A stretch of DNA of 43,803 bases from an uncultured Candidatus Peribacteria bacterium (GTDB lineage: Bacteria; Patescibacteriota; Gracilibacteria; UBA4473), in NCBI GenBank assembly GCA_964451885.1, contig CAYVJW010000002.1:1-43803 (forward strand), read 5' to 3'. Of the stretch, positions 1 to 16,639 are shown one piece after another. A model generated the notes under the pieces. It made no database searches, was not told the DNA's origin, and saw only the letters and a program-made list of their open reading frames with translations. The translations under genes were made by a program, and so were the position numbers. Position 1 is the first letter of the stretch, and each line of letters opens with the position of its first letter.

Positions 1-17
1 AGTCCGGTTCTTAGAAG

Positions 18-43
18 GCTGGAGCTCAGCAATGGGCTCTGGC
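18..43. repeat. GC-rich hairpin (8-bp stem including two G-T pairs, 10-nt loop) at the window edge
   Basis: gctggagc / tcagcaatgg / gctctggc. Same stem plus 10-nt-loop geometry, and a similar TC.G....GG loop, as the hairpins at 17447-17474 and 17551-17574. Confidence 0.3.
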
Positions 44-54
44 TATTCGGCCTC

Positions 55-97
55 AATTTCTAAATTTTCAAACATATCTTTTTGAAAATTAGAAATT
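55..97 (-). terminator. AT-rich 17-bp (one bulge) hairpin just downstream of the stop of ORF 103-387
   Basis: aatttctaaattttcaaa pairs with tttgaaaattagaaatt, loop catatctt. No clear U-run follows on the minus strand. Confidence 0.25.
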
Positions 98-102
98 ATT
101 TC

Positions 103-387
103 TTATCTCGGCCAATCATTCAGTACATCCATGACCAATTGCAAAGACAAACCAAGCTCCTCAGCAACTTTTGTCGCAAGACTTTCCGAAGATATTGTAT
201 TTTCCTGAAGTTGTTTTCGTCGAGCTTCTACAGCAGCTTGAATTGATTCTACTGTTTCAAGAATCAAATGCGGATATTTTTCTTGCAGGGACGGAGAAAT
301 GGAATAAGGAGGTTGTACATTTCCTTCCGGAACTGGCTGAGGATTTAAACCCTCTGGCCTTTTGCTGACATCAATAAAATCTATCAT
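103..387 (-). CDS. hypothetical small protein (94 aa)
   Basis: Only sizeable ORF in this interval. ATG start. No motif I recognise. Confidence 0.4.
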   Translation of the reverse strand: MIDFIDVSKRPEGLNPQPVPEGNVQPPYSISPSLQEKYPHLILETVESIQAAVEARRKQLQENTISSESLATKVAEELGLSLQLVMDVLNDWPR

Positions 388-442
388 TATTAAAAAATGA
401 TTAATAAATACGCAAGCGAATGTAGATAGCTTGTAAGTATTG

Positions 443-3400
443 TCAAACTTTTTTTGTAATTTTTAGAATTACCTCCTCCTTGTCAACTTCTATTTTATCC
501 CCTGAAACATGCTCGTCACGCTTTATTTCCAAAGCCAAAACCTCCTCTGAAATCATTTTTTCAAAATGCTCGAAAGCTGATTTTATAACTTCTGAATCTG
601 TAGAGTAGGCAACTTTAATCCGGTCAGAAACATCAAAGCCTTTTTCTTTTCGTGTTTCTTGAATTGTTCTGATGAGTTCGCGTGCGTAGCCTTCCATGCG
701 TAATTCTGCCGAAATTTCCGTATCGAGAAGCACGACTGTGTGTCGCGTCGCTTCGGCTTCAATACCTTCTCTACAACAAAAACCAAACTCGTATTCGTTA
801 GGGGCCAACGTTTCTCCGGAGATTTCAATTTGTCCGTTTTTAAGTTCCTGGAAATTCCCCCCCTTACCTTCGCGAATTAATTCCTGCACCTTCTTTCCCA
901 ATCGAGGTCCCACCTTTTTGGCATCTACTTTTACAGTCTTTTGGGCAATTCCTTTCAGATTTTTCAGGATTTCGACTTCTTTTACGTTCGCCTCTTCTTG
1001 GATAACTTCCATCTGAAGGCGAGACGGCGCCGTCTCGCCTTCAGGAGTTGATATGGCAAATCGTAGTTTTTGCAATGGCTGTCTCAATTTAATTTTCTTT
1101 CTCGCCCTTACTGCTGCCGCCAACCGTACAATTTCCCGCACAACAGCTACCTGTTGCTCAGCTTTTTCATCAATCCATTTTTCAACCGCAAAAGGAAACA
1201 CAGTTAAATGTACTGATTCGTCATTCGTAGACCCTGAGCTTGCCGAATGGGTCGAAAGATCTCGGAAGAGTTTTTCCGAAAAAAACGGACAAACGGGAGC
1301 CAGTATTTTTGACAGGGCAAGAAGAGCACAATGCAGAGTTTCATAAGCTGCATGTTTATCTTCCGAAAACTCACCTGGTTTTCCTTCCCAAAACCGCCTT
1401 CTCGATCGTCGCAAATACCAGTTATTCAAATTATCTACGAATTTTGGAATCCTCCGAAGGGCTGTCTCGATTTCGTACTCGTCAAAATGTTTTCGAAAAG
1501 TCTTTATCGTGGTTTGTAGCTCAGATAAAATCCATTTATCAAGGTCATTTTTTGGCTTTGGTGCCGCAAATACGACTTTATGGTCGCCGGTCTTCACTTT
1601 TGGGGAGCGAAGATAGTCTTCTGCTTTGGCTTCGTTCGGGTTTAATTCTAAAGCCTGAATCGGTCCTCCGTGAGAAATCGCCACAATGGTTTTTCCCCTA
1701 TGTTTTTCTTTCATATCAGTTAAAAAATCCTGCATCCGACCTTGCGTGCTTTCCAGACTTTCGGTAGTAAGGTTGGCCAGCCGCTCTGGCTTCGGAAGGA
1801 CCTCCTTTCCTTCCAAGTCGCCAAAGCCTATTTCCCTGATTCGCTCGTCAATTATTATTTCCCCTTTGAAATTCGTTTCTTTTTTGAGTATTGCAGACGT
1901 TTCTTTGGCTCGAATGAAAGGAGAAGTAATGAGTACGTCAAAATCAGGGAGGGTTTGGGCGGCTTCTTTTGCTTCTTCTTTCCCTTTTTTCGTCAAATGA
2001 TGGTCATTTGCCACTCTTCCAGAATAAATCCGAGCAACGTTATGATCGGCTTCTCCGTGGCGGACGAAAATAAACTTAGTCGGCTGCCACTGGTCAATGT
2101 TGGCATAAGTGGAAAAGAAATTATAGGCATTTTGGATGGGCAGTATTACGGACTTGAGAACGTCCTCAACTCCTTGTTCGGCAAAATTAAAGTTTTCCCC
2201 CTTCATTATTGAAGACCCCATCAAATAAAACCGCATCGCATCTGCTCCATATTTATCAAAAACCAAAGTCGGATCGGGATAATTTTTCTTGGATTTAGAC
2301 ATCTTCGTCCCGTCTTCAGCCATAATCGTTCCGGTACAGATGGCATTTTTAAAAGAAGGCTTGTTCATCAGCGCCGTGGACAAAACATGCAGCGTATAAA
2401 ACCAGCCTCGTGTCTGGGCAATGTATTCGGCGATAAAATCTCCAGGAAAAGTTGCTTCAAATCGTTCTTTGTTTTCAAAGGGGAAATGTTTCTGTGCGTA
2501 CGGCATGGCCCCGCTCTCAACCCAACAATCGAGGACCTCCGGAGTACGGATCATTATTCCTTTACATTTTTTACATGACCATGTCAATTCATCAACAAAA
2601 TGCTTATGCAAATCCTTCACTTTTTTTCCAGATAAATTTTCCAGTTCTGCAATCGATTCGACTACTTGCTGATGTTCGCATTTATCACATTTCCAGATTG
2701 GAATCGGAGATCCCCAAAAACGGTTTCTCGATATGTTCCAATCGGGAGCTGTTTCAATTCCCTTTCCAAAACGACCGTGTTTTAAGTGACGAGGAACCCA
2801 ATTAATTTCTTCATTATTTTTGATCATATCGTCTTTGATCTTGTGAACGGCCAAAAAGTAAGCCAATTGAGGCTTGTAAATTAATGGGGTGTCGCAGCGC
2901 CAACAGTGTGGATAGGAATGAGAATGTTGTTGCCGTTCAAAAAGATTTCCTTGTTCTTCCAAAAAGAGATTGATCTGTTTATTCGTATCCTGATGGATAA
3001 CCGACATTCCCACAAAATCTGCCACCACTTCCTCAAAAACTCCATGGTCATCAACTGTTTCCAGATCTATTATTGGCAGATTGTTTTCTTTGGCATAGTT
3101 AAAATCATCTTCCCCGAAAGGGGCCAGATGAACGATTCCTGTCCCGTCTACATCCGAAACAAAATCAGCTCCTACTACTCGAAAAAGGCCGTCTTTTCGC
3201 TTGTCTTCGAAGTAGGGGAAGAGTGGTTCATATTGAATGTCTACTAAATCTTTCCCCTTAATTTTTTCTATTATGTCTGCCTCTTCACCAAAAAATTTTT
3301 TCACTAAATTTTCCGTAACAATAAATTGAGCGTTTTTATGTTCTACTTTTACATAGTACAATTCCGGATTCACACAGAGCGCAAAATTAGAAGGCAGTGT

Positions 3401-4207
3401 CCATGGGGTTGTGGTCCAAGCAAGAATGTATGTATTTTCTTTATCTCTTATCTTAAATTTTACCGTTGCTGACTGGTCATGCCGAATCTTATACGAGTTA
3501 TCCATCGCGATCTCAAAAGTCGACAAAGGCGTGGCGCATCGTGAGCAATAAAGGGAAATACGCCGTCCCTCATAAATCAAATCTTTTTTATGTAATTCCG
3601 AAAACAGCCACATTACACTTTCCATATAATCCAAATCCATTGTCTTATAATCGTTTTCGAAATCCACCCATCGGCCGAGACGCTCAACCACCTTTTCCCA
3701 CTCCGCCACATACATATCGACCTTGCTTCGGCAGGCTTCGTTAAACTTTGCAATGCCGATTTTTTCTTCAATATCCTTCTTTGATTTCGTCTCAAACGCC
3801 TTTTCAACTATATTTTCAACAGGTAATCCGTGGCAATCCCATCCGAAACGCCGTTCAACCCGGTAGCCTTTCATGGTCCAATACCGGGGGACAACGTCTT
3901 TAATTGTCGAAGCCAGTAAATGCCCGTAGTGAGGGAGTCCCGTAGCAAACGGCGGCCCGTCGTAAAACACATACTCGTGTTTCGGATTCCGTGTTTCTAT
4001 AGAACGCTCAAAGATTTTTTCCTTTTTCCAGAATTTCAGAATTTCTTCTTCGTTTTGGGAGATGGATGCATTGGAATCGATGGGAGGAAAATGTTGCATG
4101 AAATAATTACTTGACTTAAGATGATTTACGAATAATTTGGACGAAAAGTGACCTGAAAGCCTTGAGCTTGAGCTTGAGCTTGAGCTTGAGTTGGCATTGT
4201 TGCTCAA
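443..4207 (-). CDS. ileS: isoleucyl-tRNA synthetase with an embedded histidine-phosphatase domain. The true start is probably the ATG at 4099.
   Basis: HIGH-type motif PHYGHLLAS, KMSKS, editing-domain WTTTPWTLPSN, and the DLDKWILSEL anticodon-domain helix. The N-terminal 36 codons, including poly-Ser from a hexamer repeat, have no IleRS counterpart. Confidence 0.95.
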   Translation of the reverse strand: MSNNANSSSSSSSSSRLSGHFSSKLFVNHLKSSNYFMQHFPPIDSNASISQNEEEILKFWKKEKIFERSIETRNPKHEYVFYDGPPFATGLPHYGHLLASTIKDVVPRYWTMKGYRVERRFGWDCHGLPVENIVEKAFETKSKKDIEEKIGIAKFNEACRSKVDMYVAEWEKVVERLGRWVDFENDYKTMDLDYMESVMWLFSELHKKDLIYEGRRISLYCSRCATPLSTFEIAMDNSYKIRHDQSATVKFKIRDKENTYILAWTTTPWTLPSNFALCVNPELYYVKVEHKNAQFIVTENLVKKFFGEEADIIEKIKGKDLVDIQYEPLFPYFEDKRKDGLFRVVGADFVSDVDGTGIVHLAPFGEDDFNYAKENNLPIIDLETVDDHGVFEEVVADFVGMSVIHQDTNKQINLFLEEQGNLFERQQHSHSYPHCWRCDTPLIYKPQLAYFLAVHKIKDDMIKNNEEINWVPRHLKHGRFGKGIETAPDWNISRNRFWGSPIPIWKCDKCEHQQVVESIAELENLSGKKVKDLHKHFVDELTWSCKKCKGIMIRTPEVLDCWVESGAMPYAQKHFPFENKERFEATFPGDFIAEYIAQTRGWFYTLHVLSTALMNKPSFKNAICTGTIMAEDGTKMSKSKKNYPDPTLVFDKYGADAMRFYLMGSSIMKGENFNFAEQGVEDVLKSVILPIQNAYNFFSTYANIDQWQPTKFIFVRHGEADHNVARIYSGRVANDHHLTKKGKEEAKEAAQTLPDFDVLITSPFIRAKETSAILKKETNFKGEIIIDERIREIGFGDLEGKEVLPKPERLANLTTESLESTQGRMQDFLTDMKEKHRGKTIVAISHGGPIQALELNPNEAKAEDYLRSPKVKTGDHKVVFAAPKPKNDLDKWILSELQTTIKTFRKHFDEYEIETALRRIPKFVDNLNNWYLRRSRRRFWEGKPGEFSEDKHAAYETLHCALLALSKILAPVCPFFSEKLFRDLSTHSASSGSTNDESVHLTVFPFAVEKWIDEKAEQQVAVVREIVRLAAAVRARKKIKLRQPLQKLRFAISTPEGETAPSRLQMEVIQEEANVKEVEILKNLKGIAQKTVKVDAKKVGPRLGKKVQELIREGKGGNFQELKNGQIEISGETLAPNEYEFGFCCREGIEAEATRHTVVLLDTEISAELRMEGYARELIRTIQETRKEKGFDVSDRIKVAYSTDSEVIKSAFEHFEKMISEEVLALEIKRDEHVSGDKIEVDKEEVILKITKKV
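1550..2077 (-). other. histidine phosphatase (PGAM/His_Phos_1-like) domain inserted in-frame within ileS
   Basis: FIFVRHGEADHN (RHG-x4-N; RHG codons at 2054-2062), ITSPFIRAKETS, ERIREIGFGDLEG, AISHGGPI (His codon at 1670-1672). Confidence 0.8.
4161..4190. repeat. perfect hexanucleotide tandem repeat (cttgag)x5
   Basis: Read directly. It encodes the Ser run if the ileS ORF starts at 4207. It lies in the leader if translation starts at 4099. Confidence 0.9.
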
Positions 4208-4301
4208 GACAGGTCATTTTTTGTTGTTTTCAGATTTTGAAAGCTTTTTTTGGCAGATAACTTAATAAGAGAAACGAATTTTCGATGCATCTTACTTAAT
4301 T

Positions 4302-5285
4302 TTAGCTCCCTAAATGATTAGCGCTCAATCCCAATTTCTCCCGCACTTCCATCAACTTTTCATTTGCAATTTCAGAAGCCTTGAGTGCCCCGTTCCACAG
4401 AACCTCCTCTACAAATCTCGAATCTTTTACAAGTTTTTCACGCCTTTCCCTTGCTTCCGAAAAACAACCCCACACTAGCTCAAAAAGCTGCTTTTTGGCA
4501 TCTCCGTATCCGATTTCGCCGTTTTTATATTGATTACTGAGTGTTTCAATATTCGGGTTATTAAAGAGCGAGTGTAATTGAAAAACCAAACAATTATTCG
4601 GATTCAAAGGCTCTCCAAGCTCTTTTGAATCTGTTTTTATAGACATGATTTTTTTCTTCATCACACTCTCTTTGGCAAAAATATCAATAGTATTTCCATA
4701 GCTTTTAGACATCTTTTGTCCGTCTAGACCAGGGATAGTCTGTACTTCTTCAGACATTCTTGGTTCGGGTACTACAAACGTTTCCCCAAATTCATGATTA
4801 AATTTCTGGGAAATGTCGCGCGCCATTTCCACATGCTGTTTCTGGTCTTTTCCCACAGGGATTACTTCCGCCCCGTAGAGCAGAATATCTGCGGCCATTA
4901 GAACCGGATAAGTAAAAAGTCCGGCATTAGCCTCCAGTCCTTTGGCTATTTTATCCTTATAAGAATGAGCTCTTTCCAAAAGTCCCATGGGAGTAAAGCA
5001 AAGCAGATACCACATGAGCTCTGTATGAGCCGGAACATCGGACTGTCGATAAAAAATAGATTTTTCCGGGTCGATACCCAACGCCAGCCAATCCAAAACG
5101 GCATTTCTCTGGTTTTCCGTGAACAATTTCGGATCACGTTTTGAGGTAAACGAATGAAGATCGGCAATAAAATAAAAACATTCGTTAGATCCTTCATTTT
5201 GAAGCGCTATTGAGGGCTTCATCATCCCAAAATAATTCCCGATATGGGGATTCCCGCTTGCCTGCATGCCGGTAAGGATTCTCAT
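4302..5285 (-). CDS. trpS: tryptophanyl-tRNA synthetase
   Basis: N-terminal GMQASGNPHIGNYFG (HIGH-like), KMSKS, and ~327 aa, typical of bacterial TrpRS. Confidence 0.95.
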   Translation of the reverse strand: MRILTGMQASGNPHIGNYFGMMKPSIALQNEGSNECFYFIADLHSFTSKRDPKLFTENQRNAVLDWLALGIDPEKSIFYRQSDVPAHTELMWYLLCFTPMGLLERAHSYKDKIAKGLEANAGLFTYPVLMAADILLYGAEVIPVGKDQKQHVEMARDISQKFNHEFGETFVVPEPRMSEEVQTIPGLDGQKMSKSYGNTIDIFAKESVMKKKIMSIKTDSKELGEPLNPNNCLVFQLHSLFNNPNIETLSNQYKNGEIGYGDAKKQLFELVWGCFSEARERREKLVKDSRFVEEVLWNGALKASEIANEKLMEVREKLGLSANHLGS

Positions 5286-5329
5286 GATTTAAGGAAGAAA
5301 TTAACAACAAGTAGTTAAGCATTTTTCTA

Positions 5330-5358
5330 TTGAAAATCAATAGAAAGTATGATAAAAT
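5330..5358 (+). promoter_or_regulatory. candidate sigma70-type promoter (ttgaaa-17-taaaat) overlapped by the perfect palindrome 5326-5344
   Basis: ttgaaa at 5330-5335, 17-nt spacer, taaaat at 5353-5358. tctattga-aaa-tcaataga spans the -35 element. Confidence 0.35.
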
Positions 5359-5366
5359 GACACGAT

Positions 5367-5717
5367 ATGGAAAAAATATTATTCGAAATCATTGAGTATG
5401 TTGCCCTAGGGATAGGTATTGTCGGGATCATTGTGATATTGATCGGGGCATTACATGGCCTTTGGGTCTATGTCACCAGGTCATCCCATTATTTTTCCCG
5501 GATCAGAATTATTCTGGGAAAACACCTGATTCTCGGCCTTGATTTTCTGGTGGGAAAAGATGTGATTGACACCCTGTTGCTCCATCCGGGAAAAGATTTT
5601 TATCAACATCTGTTGTCTTTAATCACGATAGTGGCAATTCGTATCATTTTGAGTTACGTGGTACTGAAAGAACTCGATGAACTGGAAAAGAGATGCACGA
5701 GAAAAGTGAAGCACTAA
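5367..5717 (+). CDS. small membrane protein, DUF1622-like
   Basis: Two or three hydrophobic helices. The pattern IGALHGLW...ILGKHLILGLDFLVGKDVI...IVAIRIILSY resembles DUF1622 from memory. Confidence 0.65.
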   Translation: MEKILFEIIEYVALGIGIVGIIVILIGALHGLWVYVTRSSHYFSRIRIILGKHLILGLDFLVGKDVIDTLLLHPGKDFYQHLLSLITIVAIRIILSYVVLKELDELEKRCTRKVKH

Positions 5718-5724
5718 ACAGATT

Positions 5725-7356
5725 TTATATTTCCGTCTTTGCCGCTTCCCGATACTTCCTCAATAACGACGTCATTTTTCTTTTTGGGGCTTTGGCTTTT
5801 TTTAAACGATCTTTTATTTCTTCATCAGAAAGTTTCACATTCAAAATCCGATTCGGAACATCAATCTCAATAATATCTCCCTCCTGAAGGGCGGCAATTG
5901 CTCCGCTACTGTAAGCTTCCGGTTGAACATGTCCGATACAAAGTCCTGCTGTTCCTCCGGAAAACCGTCCGTCAGTTATCAACGCTACTCGTTTGAACCC
6001 AGCCCCTTTTATGGCTGCAGTAGGAGTCAGCATTTCCGGCATTCCCGGTGCGCCTGCCGGGCCGAGATAACGAAGTACCACCACATCCTCTTCTTCAATT
6101 TTTCCCGCTTCTATAGCATTCAGCAGATTTTGCTCATCTTCAAATATTTTAGCCGGCCCTGTGTGTGTCAGCATTTCATTCGGAACGGCCGTTTGTTTTA
6201 TTATAGAAGAATTAGCTATATTGCCCTTCAAACAAGCCACTCCTCCCTCTTTATAAAAGGGATTATTAAGCGGCCGAATTACTTTATCGTCCAAGACTTT
6301 AGCTGACTCGGCAATTTCTTTAATAGTACTACTGTTTATAGTTATTTCATCATTCAAAACATCAGCAAATCCATGCATAACTGCTGGTATACCTCCGGCT
6401 TTATCTAAATCCTCCATGACATGAGGGCCTGCCGGACGTATATGGCAAACATTTGGCGTATTCCGGGAAATCCGGTCAAAATCATCTTCCGATGATTCAA
6501 TACCCAGTTCTTTTGCGATAGCGATTAAATGTAGGACAACATTGGTCGACCCCCCAATGGCATTATCAATGAGAATCGCGTTTTCAAAAGCCTTTGGGGT
6601 CATTATTCGAGAAGGGGTAAACTTATCTCCCGCTTTCACCAGCTCGACAATTCTTTTCCCGGATTCATAAGCCTGTTGCTTTTTATTCGGATCAACCGCT
6701 AATGTAGTAGCACATCCTGTTACGCTCATCCCCAAAACCTCTGTCATGCAGGCCATGGAATTCGCCGTAAAAAGCCCCGCACAAGACCCGGCAGTCGGGC
6801 AAGCCGCACACTCTACCTCAAGCCCTTCTTTTTCAGTAATATTGCCGGCCTTAATGCCTCCAACCGCTTCAAAACCCGTGATAAGATCGATCGTTTTTTC
6901 ATGTAAATGACCGGCTTTCATCGGACCTCCCGTAAGAATTATAGCCGGCAAATCAAGCCGCCCGGCAGCCATTAGCATTCCCGGCGTAATCTTATCACAA
7001 TTCGTCACCCCCACCCATCCGTCAAAAGAATGAGAAAGCATCATGATTTCCACATTATCGGCGATATGCTCTCGGCTCGGCAAGCTCAGCCGCATTTCCG
7101 CATACATCGCAATCCCGTCGCATACTCCCGGAACGCCCCAGACAAAAGGCACCCCTCCTGCTTCCCGGATACCGCGCATGACTTCTTTTGCCAGATCGTT
7201 AAGGTGAATGTGTCCGGGGACAACATTGTTGTAAGAATTGGCGACCCCGATAAACGGCTTTTTAAAATCAGCATCTTTTAGTCCAGAAGCTCTGAGAAGG
7301 GAACGATGGGGCAGTGTTTCTGTGCGGTTTTTAAGGATGGAAGATCTTAAAGGCAT
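5725..7356 (-). CDS. ilvD: dihydroxy-acid dehydratase (IlvD/Edd family). Start placed at the internal ATG at 7356.
   Basis: PHRSLLRASGL, FIGVANSYNNVVPGH, CDGIAM, TNCDKITPGMLMAA, TDGRFSGGT motifs. The upstream 37 codons of the track ORF have no homology. Confidence 0.9.
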   Translation of the reverse strand: MPLRSSILKNRTETLPHRSLLRASGLKDADFKKPFIGVANSYNNVVPGHIHLNDLAKEVMRGIREAGGVPFVWGVPGVCDGIAMYAEMRLSLPSREHIADNVEIMMLSHSFDGWVGVTNCDKITPGMLMAAGRLDLPAIILTGGPMKAGHLHEKTIDLITGFEAVGGIKAGNITEKEGLEVECAACPTAGSCAGLFTANSMACMTEVLGMSVTGCATTLAVDPNKKQQAYESGKRIVELVKAGDKFTPSRIMTPKAFENAILIDNAIGGSTNVVLHLIAIAKELGIESSEDDFDRISRNTPNVCHIRPAGPHVMEDLDKAGGIPAVMHGFADVLNDEITINSSTIKEIAESAKVLDDKVIRPLNNPFYKEGGVACLKGNIANSSIIKQTAVPNEMLTHTGPAKIFEDEQNLLNAIEAGKIEEEDVVVLRYLGPAGAPGMPEMLTPTAAIKGAGFKRVALITDGRFSGGTAGLCIGHVQPEAYSSGAIAALQEGDIIEIDVPNRILNVKLSDEEIKDRLKKAKAPKRKMTSLLRKYREAAKTEI

Positions 7357-7410
7357 TTTTAAATAATTAGCATGATTTATAGTGTAAAAATGCTCCCCTG
7401 TAAAATCAAC

Positions 7411-7438
7411 TTGACAGGGAATAAAAAATGTGTATAAA
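7411..7438 (+). promoter_or_regulatory. candidate promoter ttgaca-16-tataaa upstream of ORF 7474
   Basis: ttgaca at 7411-7416, tataaa at 7433-7438. Confidence 0.35.
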
Positions 7439-7473
7439 TGATAACGAGAATATAATTTAATAATCAAGAAGAA

Positions 7474-8085
7474 ATGTTACAACTCGAAGAAAATACAACT
7501 CAAGCAGAAGGCCTTACCGCATTTATTGCCAAAAAAAAGACAACAGGAGTTGGTCTTCCGGATTCTGGAGGATTTGAAGTGATCAGCTTTAACGATTCAG
7601 AAGATCCGGAGCAGGAGGCTGAGGAGTTAGGACAACTTTCCGGACTTGTAGCGGCTATTGCGGCGGCAAAAGAAAGAAATACATGGATATTAACGATCGA
7701 AGAGCAAGAGAGGTTGGAATACCTTGAAGAAATGCTTGAAAAAAGAGAATTGGAGGCTTTGGGAATTTTAAAAAATTTAATAGCCTTACGAGATGAAACC
7801 TCTAATAATCTTTCTTCGGCAAGAAGCGCTGAAATAAGAAATGAATCTACTAGTCTCATACAGAAAATAGAAGTTATGACAACCGTAGCAGAAATAGAAG
7901 CCAATGCGATTCAAGCGGTTATACAAGCTATAAAGGAAAGAGAAAAAGCAAAAGCCCGGGTTGCAGAACAAACTTTCGTCCAGGTTCAAGAATTGATCCA
8001 AAGAATTTCCTCAAGCTTAATAAATGACGAGCGAGAAGTGAGAGAAGAAGTAGATGGACTTGCGTTAGAATTGGCGGCGGCGTAG
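7474..8085 (+). CDS. acidic coiled-coil hypothetical protein (203 aa)
   Basis: Long ORF with an ATG start. Glu/Ala/Leu/Ile-rich heptad-like composition. No catalytic motif. Confidence 0.55.
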   Translation: MLQLEENTTQAEGLTAFIAKKKTTGVGLPDSGGFEVISFNDSEDPEQEAEELGQLSGLVAAIAAAKERNTWILTIEEQERLEYLEEMLEKRELEALGILKNLIALRDETSNNLSSARSAEIRNESTSLIQKIEVMTTVAEIEANAIQAVIQAIKEREKAKARVAEQTFVQVQELIQRISSSLINDEREVREEVDGLALELAAA

Positions 8086-8157
8086 AAAATAATTGATAAT
8101 TGTTAATTGTCATTGTACCCTGAGCTTGCCGAATGGGATAATTGATAATTGATTCTG
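8086..8157 (+). repeat. 72-nt leader module: heptamer words (ataattg x2, ttaattg, tcattgt), a G+C-rich core at 8117-8137, then ataattg x2. It is homologous to 29196-29267.
   Basis: Aligned by eye with the ruvB leader. Shared blocks are ATTGATAATTG, AATTG, ACC, TGAGCTT, CGAA.GG and ATAATTGATT.TGATG. Confidence 0.7.
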
Positions 8158-9282
8158 ATGCGTTCCCTTTTTACTTCTGAATCCGTCACAGAAGGCCACC
8201 CCGACAAGGTAGCCGATCAAATTTCCGACAGCGTTCTGGATGCTATTTTAAAAGAAGATATTCATGGCCGGGTAGCCTGCGAAGTTTTGGTAAAAACAGG
8301 CTTAGTGGTTATTGCCGGGGAAATCACCACCAAGTGCTATGTAGATATTCCAAAAGTAGCCCGGGCAAAAATTTGTGAGATTGGCTATGACTCGGACGAA
8401 CTAGGATTCGACGGAAAAGCCTGTGCAGTTCTTACTACTATCGACGAGCAATCTCCGGATATTGCTCAAGGAGTGGATGAAAACAAAGGACACAAACAAG
8501 GGGCCGGCGACCAAGGAATGATGTTTGGGTATGCGTCCAATGAAACACCTGAACTCATGCCAATTTCTATCACAATGGCTCATAGCCTCGCAAAGCGTTT
8601 AGCGGAGGTAAGAAAAAAAAGCATTATTCCTTATCTCCGACCGGACGGGAAAACACAGGCCACTTTTGAATATGAAAACGGCAAGCCGATGAGAGCTCAT
8701 ACTTTGTTAATTTCGGCCCAACATGCTCCGGAAGCGGCACGGCCTCAAATTCAAAAAGATATTACGGAACATGTATTAAAGCCGGTCTTGGGCAAGTGGA
8801 TGGATAAAAATACCATTATTCACATAAATCCAACAGGAAGATTTGTGATCGGTGGGCCCAAAGGAGATAGCGGACTTACCGGAAGAAAAACTATAGTTGA
8901 TACATACGGAGGTATGGCCAGGAACGGAGGGGGGTGTTTTTCTGGAAAAGATCCGTCAAAAGTCGATCGTTCAGGCGCTTATATTGCCCGGCATATTGCA
9001 AAAAATTTGGTTGCAAACGAATACAGCACTAAATGCGAAGTGCAGATATCCTATGCTATCGGGATAGCCGAGCCGGTTTCGATTTTTGTGGAAACATTTG
9101 GGACAGGTACGAAAAGCACGAAAGAGCTAGAGAAAATTATTCAAAAAAATTTTCCACTTACTCCAAAAGAGATTATTGAATATTTGGAACTCCTTCGCCC
9201 TATTTATAGTCCATTGGCAGCATACGGTCATTTTGGGAGGTCGGAGTTGGGTTTGCCTTGGGAAAGGGTTGTAAAGATTTGA
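8158..9282 (+). CDS. metK: S-adenosylmethionine synthetase
   Basis: [44 protein letters not shown] motifs. Confidence 0.95.
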
Positions 9283-9344
9283 CAAATCCTTTATCAGAAC
9301 TACAATAATCAAGCTCTGTTTTAACTTCTTAAACATAATTAAAA

Positions 9345-9911
9345 ATAAAAGGTCCATTTCGAGGCAGTCGAAGAAGAGGGTATTTTCAACCTTCCAAAAA
9401 GCTTCATCGCACAAATCATCAAATTAGGGCAATTAAAGTAAGGCTGGTTGATGAAAAAGGAGGGTTGATTGGAATTGTCAGCATTGAGGAGGCGCTTAGT
9501 ATTGCGAAAGAGAAGGAAGTGGATTTAGTAGAAATTTCTCCCAAAGCAGATCCTCCCGTATGCAAAGTGATTGACTACGGAAAAATGATTTACGCTCAGA
9601 AGAAAAGGGAACAGAAAGCCAAAAAATTAAACAAAGCAAGTGAAGTAAAAGGGGTGCGACTAACTTTTCGGATCGGACCGGGAGATTTGGAGCGCCAACA
9701 AAAAACAGCAAAGGACTTTCTTGAAAAAGGGCATCCAATCCGAATTCAGTTAATTATGAAAGGGAGGGAAAAGACACATAAAGACCTGGCATATGATAAA
9801 TTAAATAAATTCATTAATTCTCTAAAAGAAGTAGGCACACTTGATCAACCACCAAGAGGGGCTGGCCATCAAATCATTGCCATGATGAGACCGGGGCAGG
9901 GGGAGAAGTAA
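9345..9911 (+). CDS. infC: translation initiation factor IF-3. The start is non-canonical and uncertain: ATA at 9345 is proposed, while the track ORF begins at TTG 9465.
   Basis: The frame is open back to the stop at 9339-9341 and encodes HQIRAIKVRLVDEKGGLIGIVS, the conserved IF3 N-domain. There is no in-frame ATG, GTG or TTG upstream of 9465. Confidence 0.8.
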   Translation: MKGPFRGSRRRGYFQPSKKLHRTNHQIRAIKVRLVDEKGGLIGIVSIEEALSIAKEKEVDLVEISPKADPPVCKVIDYGKMIYAQKKREQKAKKLNKASEVKGVRLTFRIGPGDLERQQKTAKDFLEKGHPIRIQLIMKGREKTHKDLAYDKLNKFINSLKEVGTLDQPPRGAGHQIIAMMRPGQGEK

Positions 9912-9970
9912 CAACATATAGTAGCAAGGAAAAATACATTAATACTAAAATACTTAATACGAATAATTAG

Positions 9971-10162
9971 ATGAAGCAAAAGACTCATTCCGGCGCCAAA
10001 AAACGAACCAAGATTACAGGAACCGGAAAAGTGATGTTTCAGAAGGCTTGTAAAAATCATCTTCTCAGTTCGAAATCGAAGCGGCAGAAAAAATCGTGCC
10101 GATTAGGAGCTCCTGCTCCAGAAGGCTTAAAAAAAACACTCTCAAGACTTCTTAAAATATAG
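9971..10162 (+). CDS. rpmI: 50S ribosomal protein L35
   Basis: [21 protein letters not shown] is a typical L35 N-terminus. It sits in the infC-rpmI-rplT context. Confidence 0.9.
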
Positions 10163-10206
10163 AACTGAGTTTGTAGATGGTAGAACTTAGAAGAATACAG
10201 AATCTT

Positions 10207-10241
10207 TTCTAAGTTCTAAGCTCTAAGTTCTAAGCTCTAAT
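10207..10241 (+). repeat. tandem heptamer array (ttctaag, ttctaag, ctctaag, ttctaag, ctctaat) in the rplT leader
   Basis: Read directly. 10182-10192 (agaacttagaa) is the perfect complement of 10207-10217. Confidence 0.85.
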
Positions 10242-10251
10242 CCCCATTATC

Positions 10252-10611
10252 ATGACACGAGTTACAGGCGGATCTGCGGCCCACATGCGGCATAAAAAAG
10301 TCCGAAAAGCCACCAAAGGTTATCGAGGAAAAAGGCATTCAACTTTTCGGCTTGGAATGCAAGCGATGCTGAAAGCAGGGATTAATGCTTATGTCGGAAG
10401 AAAACAGAAAAAAAGAGATTTCCGTCGGTTGTGGATAGCAAGAATCTCAGCGGCAATTAGGCAACAGGAAGGATTTAGGTATTCCGAAATTAAAAATTTA
10501 TGGCTTCATGCCAAAATGGAAATTGACCGAAAAAGCCTCTCAGAACTAGCCGTGAATTATCCGAAAGTGTTTGAGAAAGTGTTGGAAATAGCGAAGAAGA
10601 CGAAGAAGTAA
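10252..10611 (+). CDS. rplT: 50S ribosomal protein L20
   Basis: MTRVTGGSAAHMRHKKVRKATKGYRGKR is a typical L20 N-terminus. Confidence 0.95.
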   Translation: MTRVTGGSAAHMRHKKVRKATKGYRGKRHSTFRLGMQAMLKAGINAYVGRKQKKRDFRRLWIARISAAIRQQEGFRYSEIKNLWLHAKMEIDRKSLSELAVNYPKVFEKVLEIAKKTKK

Positions 10612-10635
10612 CTTATTACCTCTAGAGAATTTTGT

Positions 10636-10720
10636 GCTGGAGCACCCTTGCAGGGTGGTCATTTTGTTCAGTTGTGCACAATACAAAATATTTCGGACCA
10701 GCCTACAAGGCTGCTCCAGC
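10636..10720. repeat. REPIN-like palindromic element: two inverted 25-nt G+C-rich arms, each with its own 6-bp hairpin. It is flanked by the 10-bp direct repeat tagagaattt.
   Basis: Arms at 10636-10660 and 10696-20 pair at 22 of 25 positions. Arm hairpins are caccct-tgc-agggtg and cagcct-aca-aggctg. Direct repeats lie at 10623-10632 and 10721-10730. The element sits between the convergent genes rplT and rpsI. Confidence 0.6.
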
Positions 10721-10746
10721 TAGAGAATTTCCGTGTCGGAAATTTC

Positions 10747-11151
10747 CTATCTCTTTGCCCACTGAGGAGCCCTCCTCGCTCTCTTGAGCCCTGGTTTTTT
10801 TCGCTCTTTTTCCCTTGAATCACGAGTGAGTAAGCCATGTTCTTTTAGTTGTGTTCTGGAATTCATGTCTTTTTTTACCAAAACCCTGGAAATTCCCAGG
10901 GCAATTGCATCGGCCTGGGCTCTTTTTCCTCCCCCCGAGACTCGAATCATTAAATCAACATTCTTTTTTTCCGCTAATATCTCAAGAGGACGTAAAACAG
11001 TATAAACCATTTCCTCAGTATCCGCCCAAGATAACAAAGGAGTTTCATTTATGGATACATCACCGCTTCCACTGGGGAACAGCCGAATAGTGGCCCGTGA
11101 AGTCTTTCGTTTGCCGTTAGCGTAGAAGTAGGAACGGTTAGAAGTTGTCAT
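10747..11151 (-). CDS. rpsI: 30S ribosomal protein S9
   Basis: GGGKRAQADAIALGISRVL and a basic C-terminal tail ending in KR. Confidence 0.95.
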   Translation of the reverse strand: MTTSNRSYFYANGKRKTSRATIRLFPSGSGDVSINETPLLSWADTEEMVYTVLRPLEILAEKKNVDLMIRVSGGGKRAQADAIALGISRVLVKKDMNSRTQLKEHGLLTRDSREKERKKPGLKRARRAPQWAKR

Positions 11152-11196
11152 TAATTAAAAATTTAGAAATTTAATATCTGAATTTAATAAATTATT

Positions 11197-11631
11197 TTAT
11201 ATCACACTAAGCGATTCCGGCTTCTGCGCCTCATACGGATTCCCACTTCCTTCTACCAAAAACAGTCGCCGCAACTGTGATTTTCTATGCTTATTTTTAG
11301 GAAGCATTCCGGATACGGCTTTCCTCAGAATAAAAGTCGGATTTTTTTCTCGAACATCCTTGAGAGTACTAACTTTCAAGTGGCCAAGATATCCTGAATG
11401 GCGGTAGTATTTTTTTTGTTCTTCTTTCTTTCCTGAAACATGTATTTTTTCTGCATTCAGCACTACCACATAATCTCCTCCGTCTACATGAGGAGTTAAA
11501 TTTGTCTTCACTTTACCCCGGAGCACATTGACAACAGCAACTGCCAATTTCCCCAAAGTCTTATCGGCTGCATCAATCACAAACCACTTTCTATCCGAAC
11601 TTTTTACATTTTGGCGTAGAGTCGTTTTCAT
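11197..11631 (-). CDS. rplM: 50S ribosomal protein L13
   Basis: RKWFVIDAADKTLGKLA and VVLNAEKI motifs. ATGA start/stop overlap with rplQ. Confidence 0.95.
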   Translation of the reverse strand: MKTTLRQNVKSSDRKWFVIDAADKTLGKLAVAVVNVLRGKVKTNLTPHVDGGDYVVVLNAEKIHVSGKKEEQKKYYRHSGYLGHLKVSTLKDVREKNPTFILRKAVSGMLPKNKHRKSQLRRLFLVEGSGNPYEAQKPESLSVI

Positions 11632-11984
11632 TTGACATTAATTAATTCAATCTGAACAAGCGGAGCATTATCCCCTGGCCGCACCCCAACCCGAACCAGT
11701 CGAGTAAACCCGGAATTATTTTTCTGCTGGAGACTATAATCAAGCGCTCTTTTTGAAGCATCTTTTGTGAAAATTACTTTTTGCAGTTCCCGAACAGCAT
11801 TCATATTGTCTTTTGATTTCACCAGAGAGACTAGTTTATCCACAGCAAGAGCCAAAGCCTTCGCCTTAATTTCTGTTGTCTGAAGTTTTCCGTTAAGAAA
11901 AAGAGAAGTTAAAAGGTTTCGAACAAGCGCTTTCCGGTGGCTTGCCGGTCGATTAAGTCGAAATCCGGTTTTACGATGGCGCAT
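11628..11984 (-). CDS. rplQ: 50S ribosomal protein L17
   Basis: MRHRKTGFRLNRPASHRKALVRNL is a typical L17 N-terminus. Confidence 0.95.
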   Translation of the reverse strand: MRHRKTGFRLNRPASHRKALVRNLLTSLFLNGKLQTTEIKAKALALAVDKLVSLVKSKDNMNAVRELQKVIFTKDASKRALDYSLQQKNNSGFTRLVRVGVRPGDNAPLVQIELINVK

Positions 11985-12031
11985 ATCTTTAGAGTTTAGA
12001 ACTAAGGGGAATGTTTTTTATCTTTTACTGC

Positions 12032-13039
12032 CTACAAAACAGAAGGATTAGGTGAATGAGGAGGTAAGTTATATCCTCTTTCAGCAAGGATTTGCTCAAG
12101 CTCGGTTTTTGCTTTTTGGCCGAATCCTCTTAGTTGAGTTAATTGTGACATAGAAGTTTGCAAGAGTTGCTCAACAGAAGTAATTTTTCCGTTCACTAAG
12201 GCATTTAATGTTCTTTGAGAAAGTCCCAGTATATCGATCGGTGTAAATGGCTCATCAACAGCCGCAACGGCTGCCAATTGTTGTTCTTCTTCTTTTTTCT
12301 TCATAAGGTCGAAGCTAATAGTGAAATCACCGTCTGTATAAGCATCTTCCTTATTAAAAAGAGAAAAATAACTTTCAAGGATGTTTGCCGCTAATTTTAA
12401 AGCTTCCTCCGGATCGATTGCTCCATTTGTTTCAATCTGCATTTCCAACTGATCTAAATCAATCTGTTCTCCTACTCGTGCAGGTACAACCTCATACTTT
12501 ACACGCACGACAGGAGAGAAATTAGCATCAATAAGCATATAGCTGGGATCGTCTTCTTTTACCTGATCTTCATTGGAAACAACCCGGAATCCTATATTTT
12601 TTTCTATTCGCAAATATAACTTTTTCTTAGAATTAGCATCACCGCAAGTAGCGATAATTTGAGAAGGGTCAAGAATTTCAATATCTCCGGAAATATTTAA
12701 ATCCTTTGCGGTTATTTTTCCGTTTTTTACTAGTTGAAAAGTTATTTCCTCTACTCCTTTTGAATGTTTTTTAAGGCGCAGTTTTCGAAGATTAAGAATA
12801 ATATCAAGCACTGATTCTTTTATTCCCGGAATAGTAGAGTATTCATGAGTCCCTTCTTCTATTTTTATCCCGACAACAGCTGTTCCCGGCAGACTTGACA
12901 ATAAAACCCGACGTAAAGCATTTCCAATAGTCATTCCATACCCGGAAGGAAGTGGATTGATAACCAACTTTACAGAATTTTTTCCCAGCGATTCTATTTT
13001 CAACCGGGGAACACCGATGGTTTCATGGAGAATGTGCAT
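12032..13039 (-). CDS. rpoA: DNA-directed RNA polymerase alpha subunit
   Basis: GNALRRVLLSSLPG motif. C-terminal helix-hairpin-helix LGLSQRTLNAL. Position between rpsD and rplQ. Confidence 0.95.
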   Translation of the reverse strand: MHILHETIGVPRLKIESLGKNSVKLVINPLPSGYGMTIGNALRRVLLSSLPGTAVVGIKIEEGTHEYSTIPGIKESVLDIILNLRKLRLKKHSKGVEEITFQLVKNGKITAKDLNISGDIEILDPSQIIATCGDANSKKKLYLRIEKNIGFRVVSNEDQVKEDDPSYMLIDANFSPVVRVKYEVVPARVGEQIDLDQLEMQIETNGAIDPEEALKLAANILESYFSLFNKEDAYTDGDFTISFDLMKKKEEEQQLAAVAAVDEPFTPIDILGLSQRTLNALVNGKITSVEQLLQTSMSQLTQLRGFGQKAKTELEQILAERGYNLPPHSPNPSVL

Positions 13040-13070
13040 GGAGGAGAATGATTAATGAATAATAAGTGTA

Positions 13071-13688
13071 TTATCTGGAGTAAAATTCTACAATTAAGCG
13101 GGACTCGACAATGCTTTCAAAATGATCAGGGGAAGGAAGCTCTTGTACTTCAACTTCAAGTTTTTTGACATCTGCTTTTAACCAGGAAGGTGTATCAAAG
13201 TCAGCTCCTAACTCTTCCCTGTTTCTCTTGAAAACGGGTGAAGATTTCTTATTTTCTTTTATTATGATTTTATCTCCCGGCCGGAGTTGTATAGATGGTA
13301 CATTTACAGGCTGGCCGTTCAAACAAAACAAGCCATGTGAAACAAATTGGCGTGCCTGCATTCTCGTAAGAGCCAGGCCGGAGCGATAAATCACATTATC
13401 CAAACGCCTTTCTAAAAATTGAAATAACATATCTCCGGTAACTCCTTTTGCCCTAACAGCTTGATCAAAATATTTTCGAAACTGCTTTTCAGACAAGCAA
13501 AACATGCGTTTAGCCTTTTGCTTTTCCCGAAGCTGTTTGCCATATTCAGTTGCTTTAACAGCTCTTTTGCCGCCATGCATCCCCGGGACATTTTGGCTGC
13601 GCTGTAAAATCTTTTGGTATTTAGGAGAACCAAAGAGATTAACTCCCTCTCTTCTACATAAACGTGCTTTTGGACCTTTATAGCGCAT
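13071..13688 (-). CDS. rpsD: 30S ribosomal protein S4
   Basis: MRYKGPKARLCRREG N-terminus and the S4 RNA-binding domain RLDNVIYRSGLALTRMQARQFVSHG. Confidence 0.95.
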   Translation of the reverse strand: MRYKGPKARLCRREGVNLFGSPKYQKILQRSQNVPGMHGGKRAVKATEYGKQLREKQKAKRMFCLSEKQFRKYFDQAVRAKGVTGDMLFQFLERRLDNVIYRSGLALTRMQARQFVSHGLFCLNGQPVNVPSIQLRPGDKIIIKENKKSSPVFKRNREELGADFDTPSWLKADVKKLEVEVQELPSPDHFESIVESRLIVEFYSR

Positions 13689-13754
13689 AATGGATTTATA
13701 ATTATTTTAATAAATTATGTCTGATTTCCCCTTTTGTTTTAAGTGTTATGTTTA

Positions 13755-14129
13755 TTAGGTTTTTCGTACTTTCTTAGGGCGACAGCCTCCGTGAGGCAGG
13801 CGGGTGCGTTCTGTAATAGAAGAAATTTCAAGGCCACCGTTTAAAAGCCCTCGAATTGTCTGATCTCTTCCCGGCCCCATGCCCTTGACGAAAACATCAA
13901 CCGACTTCATCCCAAAACTCGCGGCTTTCTCGGCAACTGCCTCAGCAGAAATCTGGCCAGCATATGGAGTCGCTTGCCTGGCCCCTTTAAACCGATTAGC
14001 CCCGGGAGAGCTCCATCCCACAACATTTCCTTCCGGATCTGCTAAAGTTACAATTGTATTATTGTACTTAGCACAAACATATACCCGGCCGGTTTCAAAT
14101 GATTTTCTAACACGTTTATTAGTAGCCAT
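13755..14129 (-). CDS. rpsK: 30S ribosomal protein S11
   Basis: NNTIVTLADPEGNVVGWSS and GPGRDQTIRGL motifs. Confidence 0.95.
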   Translation of the reverse strand: MATNKRVRKSFETGRVYVCAKYNNTIVTLADPEGNVVGWSSPGANRFKGARQATPYAGQISAEAVAEKAASFGMKSVDVFVKGMGPGRDQTIRGLLNGGLEISSITERTRLPHGGCRPKKVRKT

Positions 14130-14210
14130 TGAGATTTAGAACTTAGTTATTAGAGCTTATGAAGACACGGTCTGTAGACTGTGCTTTCCGATTTTTTATT
14201 ATTAAATTTA

Positions 14211-14582
14211 TTATTTAGTTACCTTCTTTTTATTTGCAATAACAGTCTTTTTTCCTCGTTTTGTACGGGCATTGGTTTTTGTATGTTGTCCGCGGACAGG
14301 AAGCTTCCTGCGATGGCGATAGCCTCTGTATGACCCTATTTCTTGAAGCTGGCGAACACTTTGGGATACCTTGCGTCGCAAATCCGACTCCAGAACATAT
14401 TTTGTTAATACGGCTCTTAACACTTCTTCCTGCTCAGGAGTTAGATCTTTTATTCGCACGGATTCATCCATTTTAGCCTTTTTACAGACAACTTTAGCGC
14501 GAGCACTTCCCACCCCGTAAATGTATTGAAGGGAAACGACAAGGCGTTTATCAGAAGGAATCGTAATTCCGGAAACCCGCAT
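14211..14582 (-). CDS. rpsM: 30S ribosomal protein S13. Start placed at the internal ATG at 14582.
   Basis: MRVSGITIPSDKRLVVSLQYIYGVG is the canonical S13 N-terminus. The upstream 24 codons of the track ORF translate the heptamer array. Confidence 0.93.
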   Translation of the reverse strand: MRVSGITIPSDKRLVVSLQYIYGVGSARAKVVCKKAKMDESVRIKDLTPEQEEVLRAVLTKYVLESDLRRKVSQSVRQLQEIGSYRGYRHRRKLPVRGQHTKTNARTKRGKKTVIANKKKVTK

Positions 14583-14617
14583 TTGGATGTTGGATGTTAG
14601 ATGATAAATGTTGGATT
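14583..14617. repeat. tandem heptamer array (ttggatg, ttggatg, ttagatg, ataaatg, ttggatt) abutting the rpsM start
   Basis: Read directly. In mRNA sense the leader reads aatccaa catttat catctaa catccaa catccaa ATG and contains no G. Confidence 0.85.
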
Positions 14618-14673
14618 TAAAACTTAATTTTTTTATTGTTTTTCTCCTGTGCATCTTGACTCTTGCCCCTTGA

Positions 14674-14799
14674 CTACCCTTGTCTCTGTTTATGCTTTCC
14701 TCGCGTAGCGGGGTTCGTGCAGATTACGCGCACCACCCCCTTGCGCCTTATTATCCGGCAATCTCTACAGAAAAGTTTCACAGAAGCCCTCACTTTCAT
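14674..14799 (-). CDS. rpmJ: 50S ribosomal protein L36 (41 aa; below the ORF-track length cutoff)
   Basis: Hand translation gives [41 protein letters not shown]. It lies between infA and rpsM, as in the canonical operon. Confidence 0.9.
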
Positions 14800-14830
14800 T
14801 GTTATTTGATTAATATTTTCCTCCACTTGC

Positions 14831-15061
14831 CTACTTGTAACGGTAGGTAATGCGTCCTTCTTCTAAATTGTAAGGAGAAAGCATTAGTCGGACACGATCC
14901 CCCGGGACAATTTTGATAAAATGGACGCGCATCTTCCCTGACACTCGAGCTCTTACCTGATGTTCCTCAAATCCCTCTGTTGTCAGAGTGACCAGAAACT
15001 GAGATCCGGGAAGCAGCTCAATTACTACTCCCTCTATTTCGAAGTTTTCATCATTTGCCAT
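14831..15061 (-). CDS. infA: translation initiation factor IF-1
   Basis: S1-like fold signature [16 protein letters not shown]...[15 protein letters not shown]. Confidence 0.95.
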
Positions 15062-16610: not shown

Positions 16611-16639
16611 GAATATCAAACCCCTTATTTACAGCACAT

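Follow-up and report, generated by a model that had tools for sequence, protein, structure and literature searches.

The ileS gene of an uncultured Candidatus Peribacteria bacterium encodes a type-2 isoleucyl-tRNA synthetase (IleRS) that carries a complete histidine-phosphatase domain nested, in frame, between its catalytic core and its anticodon-binding domain. The gene lies on a stretch of 43,803 nucleotides (GenBank assembly GCA_964451885.1, contig CAYVJW010000002.1), referred to hereafter as the window, where its coding sequence occupies positions 443..4099 of the minus strand (1218 amino acids plus the stop codon). The inserted domain comprises 176 amino acids (residues 675-850; positions 1550..2077, minus strand) and was identified as a PhoE-like member of the His_Phos_1 family (PF00300) by profile search, by structure prediction with AlphaFold2 (AF2) and by Foldseek comparison. 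Both the observation at the junction and the identity of the domain were confirmed, and related phosphatase domains were found at four sites in the orthologous synthetases.

Identification of the inserted domain

The PF00300 match covers residues 677-817 of the synthetase (E 5e-28, 98.5 bits, against a gathering threshold of 21.7), and the insert searched alone gives E 7.7e-30 and 104.4 bits. It sits between tRNA-synt_1 (residues 20-637; Pfam E 9e-130) and Anticodon_1 (residues 854-1011; positions 1067..1540, minus strand; Pfam E 1.8e-31), a domain order that the initial annotation of the window had expected and that is extended at the C-terminus by DUF5915 (PF19302; residues 1031-1216; positions 452..1009, minus strand; Pfam E 5.7e-33), the tRNA-binding module of type-2 IleRS. 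In translation the insert reads KFIFVRHGEADHN...ISHGG...AAPKPK and is flanked by NFFSTYANIDQWQPT before and by NDLDKWILSEL after.

The residues of the family's active site could be located by translation and by alignment. They include R680 and H681, the latter being the predicted phospho-accepting histidine, which together with G682 form the RHG motif (positions 2054..2062; invariant in 29/29 sequences of alignment A1 and in every embedded copy), as well as N687, the phosphate-contacting asparagine of RHGxxxxN (2039..2041), R730, the second catalytic arginine within SPFIRAKET (1910..1912), E756, the predicted proton donor within IREIGFGDLEG (1832..1834), and H810, the distal catalytic histidine of ISHGG (1670..1672), all on the minus strand. 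The catalytic set is thus as complete as the initial annotation had claimed. The same annotation took this junction to be a short linker in other IleRS, and this is borne out by the solved human and yeast enzymes, where it measures about 25 residues: in phmmer alignments to solved structures, residues 663-850 of the window protein align to residues 665-690 of human IleRS and 666-687 of yeast IleRS, and the linker is replaced by about 185 residues. The insert is in frame and free of stop codons, and 1042 amino acids remain once it is removed, close to the figure of about 1040 that had been counted from the methionine at 4099, where homologues also start.

Membership of a specific phosphatase or mutase family (dPGM, CobC, PspA, SixA) was considered and rejected, as every curated NCBIfam threshold was missed. 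The best match was to the archaeal-type dPGM model (dPGM_arch, 93.8 bits against a cut-off of 225), and the equivalog cut-offs were likewise not reached for pgm_1 (44.2 against 81.7 bits), CobC (80.1 against 162.9), PspA (68.9 against 350) and SixA (31.5 against 74.5), with the insert falling far under the cut-offs of all gpmA and gpmB models. The residues that follow the catalytic glutamate, EIGFGDLEG, are of the phosphatase type; the corresponding mutase-type motif is ERHYG. By these comparisons the insert is a member of branch 1 of the histidine phosphatases, closest to the broad-specificity phosphatase group and with no characterised specificity assignable to it.

Fold and nearest relatives of the insert

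Independent folding that leaves the synthetase core intact had been set as a check on the initial annotation, and structure prediction agreed with it. The AF2 model of the insert with short flanks, built on 29 orthologous inserts, has a predicted local distance difference test score (pLDDT) of 93.8 and a predicted template modelling score (pTM) of 0.90, and the insert scores about 90-97 (pLDDT) inside the full-length model. There, linkers of about six residues join it to a long helix (residues 641-668) on one side and to the first helix of the anticodon domain (residues 852-873) on the other. The insert is thereby predicted to fold independently, with the alpha/beta fold of the PGAM superfamily. 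Foldseek searches of the PDB matched only proteins of the histidine-phosphatase fold, amongst them PhoE, CobC, phosphoserine phosphatase (PSP), PspA and dPGM, with probability 1.00 and query-normalised TM-scores (TMq) of about 0.65-0.82. The top matches were the Entamoeba PSP 6M1X, CobC (6E4B/6NRU), Hydrogenobacter PspA (4IJ6) and PhoE (1H2E; TMq 0.80).

The solved relatives closest in sequence are the riboflavin-pathway HFP (9MMH) and PspA, at about 28-31% identity, and the few closest free-standing relatives that bear a name are called 'broad specificity phosphatase PhoE'. In sequence alignments the cap over the active site is about 11-15 residues shorter in the insert than in PhoE, PspA and HFP, and positions 2-154 of the PF00300 profile are covered by only 141 insert residues; a more open active site is implied by the shortened cap. 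The embedded domains are slightly acidic, with a mean net charge of about -3, a value computed as a proxy for RNA binding, on which it says little or weighs slightly against.

The synthetase body

The six-frame list of open reading frames (ORFs) holds a single long ORF at this locus, positions 443..4207 of the minus strand, which reaches a TTG at 4207. Homologues begin with MxFPPIDxKK at the equivalent methionine, and for this reason the ATG at 4099, not the TTG at 4207, is taken to be the true start of ileS. A CAAGCT tandem repeat of about five copies lies just upstream of this start, in the trpS-ileS spacer (window positions ~4163-4195, minus strand), and accounts for the spurious poly-serine N-terminal extension of the longer ORF.

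The whole protein scores 896.5 bits against the ileS equivalog TIGR00392 (NCBIfam cut-off 621.4). Its best PDB matches are eukaryotic IleRS and the IleRS2 of Priestia megaterium, with phmmer E values of 1e-231 to 1e-244 against solved IleRS2 and eukaryotic enzymes as compared with 1e-65 to 1e-77 against type 1, and its C-terminus is the DUF5915 module rather than the Zn-binding C-terminus of type 1. The N-terminal body (residues 1-674; positions 2078..4099, minus strand) holds the Rossmann-fold catalytic domain, the connective peptide (CP) core, the CP1 editing domain, CP2, the Zn-knuckle CP3, the KMSKS loop and the long helix 641-668. The class I landmarks named in the initial annotation were all located by translation on the minus strand, namely HYGH (3920-3931), the WTTTPWTLPSN editing motif of CP1 (3386-3418) and KMSKS (2291-2305), and CxxC motifs occur at residues 185, 399, 471 and 509. 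Helices of the anticodon-binding domain begin at residue 852 in the AF2 model. The window protein fell below the cut-off of the NCBIfam model for GNAT-bearing IleRS (NF040702, ileS_w_GNAT; 281.6 bits against 1999) and below those of the MupA and MupB resistance IleRS models (770 and 755 bits against 1900).

The full-length AF2 model (residues 1-1200, 33 aligned sequences; pLDDT 86.7, pTM 0.81) superposes in Foldseek on P. megaterium IleRS2 (8c8v) with a target-normalised TM-score (TMt) of 0.82 and on the yeast IleRS-tRNA complex with a TMt of 0.78. On the strength of these superpositions, the synthetase body is predicted to be undisturbed by the insert.

Assembly and intein checks

Two other JGI metagenome contigs, derived from separate samples, encode an identical 1218-amino-acid protein, and on both of them its neighbourhood (ilvD, DUF1622, trpS, ileS) is that of the window. 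GC content is even across the insert junctions, and the same junctions occur in more than 45 orthologues. An assembly chimera was rejected on the basis of the recurrence of the identical protein amongst the same neighbours and of the conservation of its junctions. An intein was also rejected: the junction residues, ...QWQPT|KFIF... and ...KPK|NDLDKW..., are not of the intein type, and Pfam found no Hint or intein domain in the window protein, so that the earlier description of an in-frame, stop-free, non-intein segment agrees with both translation and Pfam. Finally, the reading of the segment as an ordinary connective peptide of IleRS was rejected because a short linker occupies this position in insert-less orthologues and in all solved IleRS structures.

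Distribution and insertion sites

The search of related genomes for the same architecture, which the initial annotation had called for, was made on the 120 best-scoring IleRS protein clusters from a search of 5.8 billion sequences. PF00300 was carried by 89 of these 120 clusters, and the carriers belong, according to source names and GTDB genome titles, to Candidatus Peribacteria, Peregrinibacteria, Gracilibacteria and Altimarinota. The genomes nearest to the window are metagenome-assembled genomes of Peribacteria, with 53-64% identity over the junction region. The architecture is therefore a lineage-wide trait of the Peribacteria/Gracilibacteria within the candidate phyla radiation (CPR), not a one-off.

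Insertion sites were mapped by projecting the 120 proteins on the insert-less orthologue P0075 (1029 amino acids) and then reading the flanking motifs, which distinguished four sites. Site A, the one used in the window, lies after ...YANIDxW and before ELDKWILSE, at the junction of the core and the anticodon domain. Site B follows GSIxELxxxxP and precedes DLHKHFVD, site C follows HKHFVDxxxxxCxxC and precedes RxPEVLDCWFESG, and site D follows MPYAxxHYPF and precedes ADFIAEGxDQTRGWF. Sites B and C are placed inside the Zn-knuckle CP3, and site D in the loop directly after it, by phmmer alignment and the limits of CP3 in yeast IleRS, residues 459-526 (PMC7955072). All four cluster around the second half of the Rossmann fold.

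Insertion at site A only was seen in 32 clusters, at C only in about 25, at B only in about 14, at B and A in 12, at D and A in three, at D only in one and at C and D in one, with 31 clusters having no insert; re-reading of the flank motifs shifts several proteins between B and C and turns one C and D assignment into B and D. Carriers hold one to four His_Phos copies per IleRS, some of them as tandem pairs in one loop, and four copies were found on a single IleRS fragment (P0123).

A phmmer search with the insert against 1.84 billion representative sequences returned 6596 proteins at E <= 1e-3, and 71 of the best 150 matches were longer than 260 amino acids. Pfam was run on 30 of these 71 long relatives, of which 23 were type-2 IleRS or fragments and seven had tandem His_Phos domains only, with no non-IleRS host protein amongst the 30; the remaining 41 were checked by IleRS motifs only, and most of them show such motifs. 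The tandem proteins, which rank amongst the insert's nearest relatives (P0136, P0165, P0184, P0186, P0203, P0243 and P0248), are 363-771 amino acids long and consist of only two or three His_Phos_1 domains. They may represent either multi-domain phosphatases that stand alone or pieces of multi-insert IleRS genes that lie on short contigs.

The insert-bearing ileS appears to be the housekeeping orthologue, not an extra paralogue, since insert-bearing and insert-less genes share one syntenic slot, and aminoacylation and editing are predicted for its product. The slot, an AAA_17/18 kinase, a dCMP deaminase, ileS, Phage_holin_4_2 and T2SSE, is common to two insert-less loci (L014 and L015) and a site-C locus (L020). 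An inorganic pyrophosphatase gene lies directly upstream of the insert-less ileS of L014 and L015.

The phosphatase is by far the commonest passenger of the IleRS2 in this lineage, and it is accompanied by others. Amongst orthologous enzymes, GNAT domains are nested in CP1 and at site D; site D also houses an AAA_33 P-loop kinase, CP3 a DUF559 endonuclease-like domain, and the editing domain a RAYT-like (REP-associated tyrosine transposase) domain, which scores 78.7 bits, just under the cut-off of 80. The co-occurring GNAT and kinase inserts have generic NCBIfam matches only. Such passengers were found in P0004, P0006, P0020, P0022, P0024, P0036 and P0253, where P0006, P0022 and P0253 carry a GNAT besides His_Phos, and P0006 reaches 1703 amino acids with four inserts. 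Judged from these sequences, the IleRS2 of the Peribacteria/Gracilibacteria lineage is clearly unusually tolerant of nested domains.

Conservation and origin of the inserts

All six positions of the catalytic hexad RHNREH are preserved in 102 of the 105 embedded copies of a first set, the three exceptions altering the asparagine only, and in 82 of 88 copies in a second set. Within the window's own clade (29 inserts, alignment A1) the residues R, H, G, N, S, R, E, R and H show no variation. The insert nevertheless evolves faster than its host, with 39-52% identity as compared with 51-81% for the synthetase core of the same pairs. A fast-evolving insert with preserved chemistry would be the signature of an active enzyme that is under purifying selection at its active site.

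Domains of one site class share 37-49% identity on average, and domains of different classes 26-30%. The window insert scores 113-383 bits against its own clade, 63-88 bits against the best free-standing PhoE-like proteins of about 180 amino acids, 33-96 bits against site B copies, 43-64 bits against site C copies and 43-57 bits against the site-A copies of the B+A clade. In a neighbour-joining (NJ) tree of IleRS bodies the window's site-A clade is monophyletic, and insert-less Peregrinibacteria enzymes are scattered amongst the B, B+A, C and D forms. Since domains from different sites resemble one another no more than they resemble free-standing phosphatases, these observations suggest repeated capture, with at least four separate insertions, one per site, followed by losses and duplications, a count that comes from NJ trees and score comparisons, which are weak tools.

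Possible functions of the embedded phosphatase

By the chemistry of its family, the insert is predicted to be catalytically active. The reaction would start with an attack by H681 on a phosphomonoester or phosphoramidate and pass through a phospho-histidine, with the phosphoryl group held by R680, N687, R730 and H810 and with E756 acting as acid/base. The occurrence of the domain at four sites and in up to four copies, its near-universally intact catalytic residues and the finding of IleRS as the only multidomain host amongst the nearest relatives point to selection for a lasting physical tie between a phosphatase and IleRS. A conflict-driven accessory function would fit better than core metabolism, because copy number varies from 0 to 4, gain and loss are polymorphic, the insert evolves faster than the core, and GNAT, kinase and nuclease inserts co-occur.

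The initial annotation had offered, as speculation, the hydrolysis of a phosphorylated by-product or alarmone and the repair of phosphorylated tRNA ends, and these ideas are still speculative. Amongst the functions considered, our preference, which is tentative and speculative, is for a guardian phosphatase that would free the aminoacylation machinery of an inhibitory phosphoryl group. It would most probably act on IleRS itself near the KMSKS/CP3 region, where the domain would counter a Hip-type kinase, and an alternative target would be a phosphorylated or pyrophosphorylated tRNA acceptor end; in either case isoleucine charging would continue under attack. This function is favoured because of the specificity for IleRS, the clustering of the sites, the open active site, the conflict-like evolution and the known precedents of attack by kinases. 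HipA phosphorylates GluRS, HipT phosphorylates TrpRS next to the KMSKS-type motif, and toxSAS enzymes such as FaRel2 pyrophosphorylate the CCA end of tRNA. Additionally, a phosphatase activity of the HD domain of the E. coli CCA-adding enzyme has been proposed to serve in tRNA end repair.

Several observations weigh against a guardian role. The nearest characterised relatives of the insert are small-molecule phosphatases (PSP, CobC, PhoE and the riboflavin HFP), not SixA, PGAM5 or Sts, and the acidic domain gives no sign of an RNA-binding surface. We know of no IleRS-directed kinase. Neither the window nor any of five related loci has a kinase toxin, toxSAS or conflict gene next to ileS, and no PADLOC-DB families were matched at E <= 0.01 by the insert or by the whole protein. 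Pyrophosphorylation of the tRNA end is not specific to tRNA-Ile and would leave the choice of IleRS as host unexplained, and the use of four different insertion sites argues against a precise geometry relative to the active site.

Two other functions are close behind. In the first, which we regard as possible if somewhat less likely, the insert would be a small-molecule phosphatase coupled to IleRS chemistry, for which proximity and fixed stoichiometry would matter instead of exact geometry. AMP, compounds of the Ap4A type, other adenylylated or phosphorylated side products, and a phosphorylated antimetabolite or inhibitor aimed at IleRS are conceivable substrates, to be taken with the same reserve. 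Such a function would suit the acidic domain and its closest neighbours, all of which, by sequence and by structure, are small-molecule phosphomonoesterases; a diffusible substrate would be compatible with four sites and variable copy number, and the co-occurring GNAT and P-loop kinase inserts belong to classic classes of small-molecule-modifying enzymes. However, no known product or inhibitor of IleRS is a phosphomonoester that would need removal, and pyrophosphate and AMP are made by all aminoacyl-tRNA synthetases (aaRS), yet IleRS is the only host seen. To our knowledge, His_Phos enzymes do not cleave adenylates or dinucleoside polyphosphates, and the shortened cap would be unusual for a specific small-molecule pocket.

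In the second, rather unlikely case, the domain would be an uncoupled metabolic phosphatase or mutase (PGM-like or PSP-like) that is tethered in IleRS as in a permissive, essential safe harbour, from which an inserted gene would not readily be lost, and that would go on with its usual metabolic task. General permissiveness is indicated by the unrelated GNAT, AAA_33, RAYT-like and DUF559 domains held in the same loops (CP3, post-CP3 and CP1), where insertion was possibly mediated by mobile elements, and Rv2228c offers a precedent of a nucleic-acid enzyme fused to His_Phos without clear functional coupling. The archaeal-type dPGM is also the best NCBIfam match of the insert, but every curated equivalog cut-off was missed by a wide margin, and the mutase-specific ERHYG is replaced by EIGFG. 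Capture at four sites, two to four tandem copies and a variation from 0 to 4 would moreover be unexpected for a housekeeping step, and no other host protein was seen amongst the scanned relatives.

A structural or regulatory role, in which the catalytic residues would be kept for ligand binding and the domain would serve in dimerisation, as an intramolecular pseudo-dimer or as a sensor of phosphate or a phospho-ligand, seems improbable. His_Phos enzymes are usually dimers, and many orthologues have at least two copies, including tandem copies in one loop, which could pair, whilst the short linkers and the pTM of 0.81 suggest a fixed orientation in the window protein. Pseudo-enzymes, however, normally lose the nucleophile or the acid, and all six catalytic positions, including the proton-donor glutamate, are conserved in about 95% of copies across divergent lineages. 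An artefact or an ordinary element of the enzyme (chimera, intein, connective peptide) is excluded: all that spoke for it was an early worry about chimerism in a metagenomic contig, against the identical protein on two other contigs, the shared junctions, the lack of a Hint domain and the short linker elsewhere.

Comparison with known systems

The closest well-characterised synthetase is the type-2, eukaryote-like and mupirocin-tolerant IleRS2 of P. megaterium (8C8U/8C8V; PMC10485003), which matches the window protein with a phmmer E of 2e-238. The domains of both follow one order (Rossmann fold, CP core, CP1, CP2, CP3, KMSKS, anticodon bundle, DUF5915), and HYGH and KMSKS are intact in the window protein, which differs in having a 176-residue phosphatase domain where the solved IleRS2 has a linker of about 25 residues. 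The free-standing phosphatases PhoE (1H2E/1EBB), PspA (4IJ5), CobC (6E4B/6NRU) and HFP (9MMH), which are about 175-210 amino acids long and 25-31% identical to the insert, share with it the fold, the R-H-N-R-E-H set and the phosphatase-type motif E-x-x-F/L-G-x-[WL]-E-G. They are usually dimeric, whereas the insert is nested in frame, has a shorter cap and finishes with a beta-hairpin leading back into its host.

Enzyme domains inside IleRS are already recognised by the curators of NF040702 ('ileS_w_GNAT'), to which the window protein, being without a GNAT, does not correspond, and NCBIfam has no counterpart model or description for a phosphatase-bearing IleRS. The RNase H/CobC-like acid phosphatase Rv2228c of M. 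tuberculosis (NF005567) also joins His_Phos_1 to a nucleic-acid enzyme, and the window insert matches the phosphatase half of that model at 66 bits, under the cut-off of 326; Rv2228c is an end-to-end fusion with RNase H, in contrast to the nested insertion in an aaRS described here. The CCA-adding enzyme, HipA-GltX, HipT-TrpS and toxSAS are conceptual precedents, in that a phosphoryl group on a class I aaRS near KMSKS or on the 3' end of tRNA blocks charging, with the difference that the phosphatase fold of the CCA-adding enzyme is HD and that of the window insert His_Phos.

The initial annotation had regarded this architecture as undescribed, and no description of it was found in the searchable full-text literature, including papers on CPR metabolism that discuss phosphoglycerate mutase. 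The proteins are already public, with precomputed PF00300 matches, but their annotation goes no further than 'isoleucine--tRNA ligase' or 'class I tRNA ligase family protein'. Both components are well known; what appears to be undescribed is that one is nested in the other, that this recurs at four sites and that a functional link is implied. Bacterial aaRS are usually thought to be fixed in architecture, and nested catalytic domains are normally editing domains.

The recurrent insertion of an intact hydrolase in one synthetase is a strong comparative-genomic signal that links phosphoryl removal to isoleucine charging, between which we know of no link at present. Identification of the substrate could reveal a regulatory modification, a route of attack on IleRS or tRNA-Ile, or a repair activity in this lineage of uncultured, probably episymbiotic bacteria. 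A more general proposal, which we consider doubtful, is that the embedded phosphatase, GNAT and P-loop kinase domains are target-embedded antidotes that would erase modifications of IleRS, tRNA or an inhibitor in cis. If true, it would amount to a new principle of self-protection for translation factors that evolved repeatedly in episymbiotic CPR bacteria, and it would imply that IleRS or tRNA-Ile is the target of an undiscovered class of toxins, acting as kinases or pyrophosphokinases, or of phosphorylated inhibitors. In more practical terms, metabolic reconstructions of CPR genomes can mistake the embedded domains for phosphoglycerate mutase or PhoE, and the four permissive loops, which take insertions of 180-700 residues, are useful for protein engineering.

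Genomic context

No free-standing His_Phos gene adjoins ileS in the window or in the insert-less and insert-bearing related loci that were compared with it. The genes of the window use the standard code and are of a housekeeping character, including trpS, ilvD, metK, rpoA, rpsD, pepA, mnmA, grpE, tuf, ruvB, ruvX, argS, recA and RNase J. Over the whole window (1..43803) there is no tRNA gene, rRNA gene or Rfam family at the gathering threshold, and the interval 9.3-12.0 kb contains only short ORFs (<150 amino acids).

Amino-acid biosynthesis is usually said to be sparse in CPR bacteria. The dihydroxy-acid dehydratase gene ilvD (5725-7467, minus strand) lies two genes from ileS, and a small subunit of the aconitase/LeuD type is encoded at 34705-35247 (minus strand). 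Further along the window, a gene at 40347-41846 (minus strand) encodes a GAF and HATPase_c_2 protein, a kinase module of the anti-sigma/SpoIIE-like type, and overlaps by 4 nucleotides the gene at 41843-43537 (minus strand), whose product of 564 amino acids has S-layer homology repeats. A DUF4012 protein is encoded at 25024-26793, and a protein of this family recurs near ileS in a related locus (L018).

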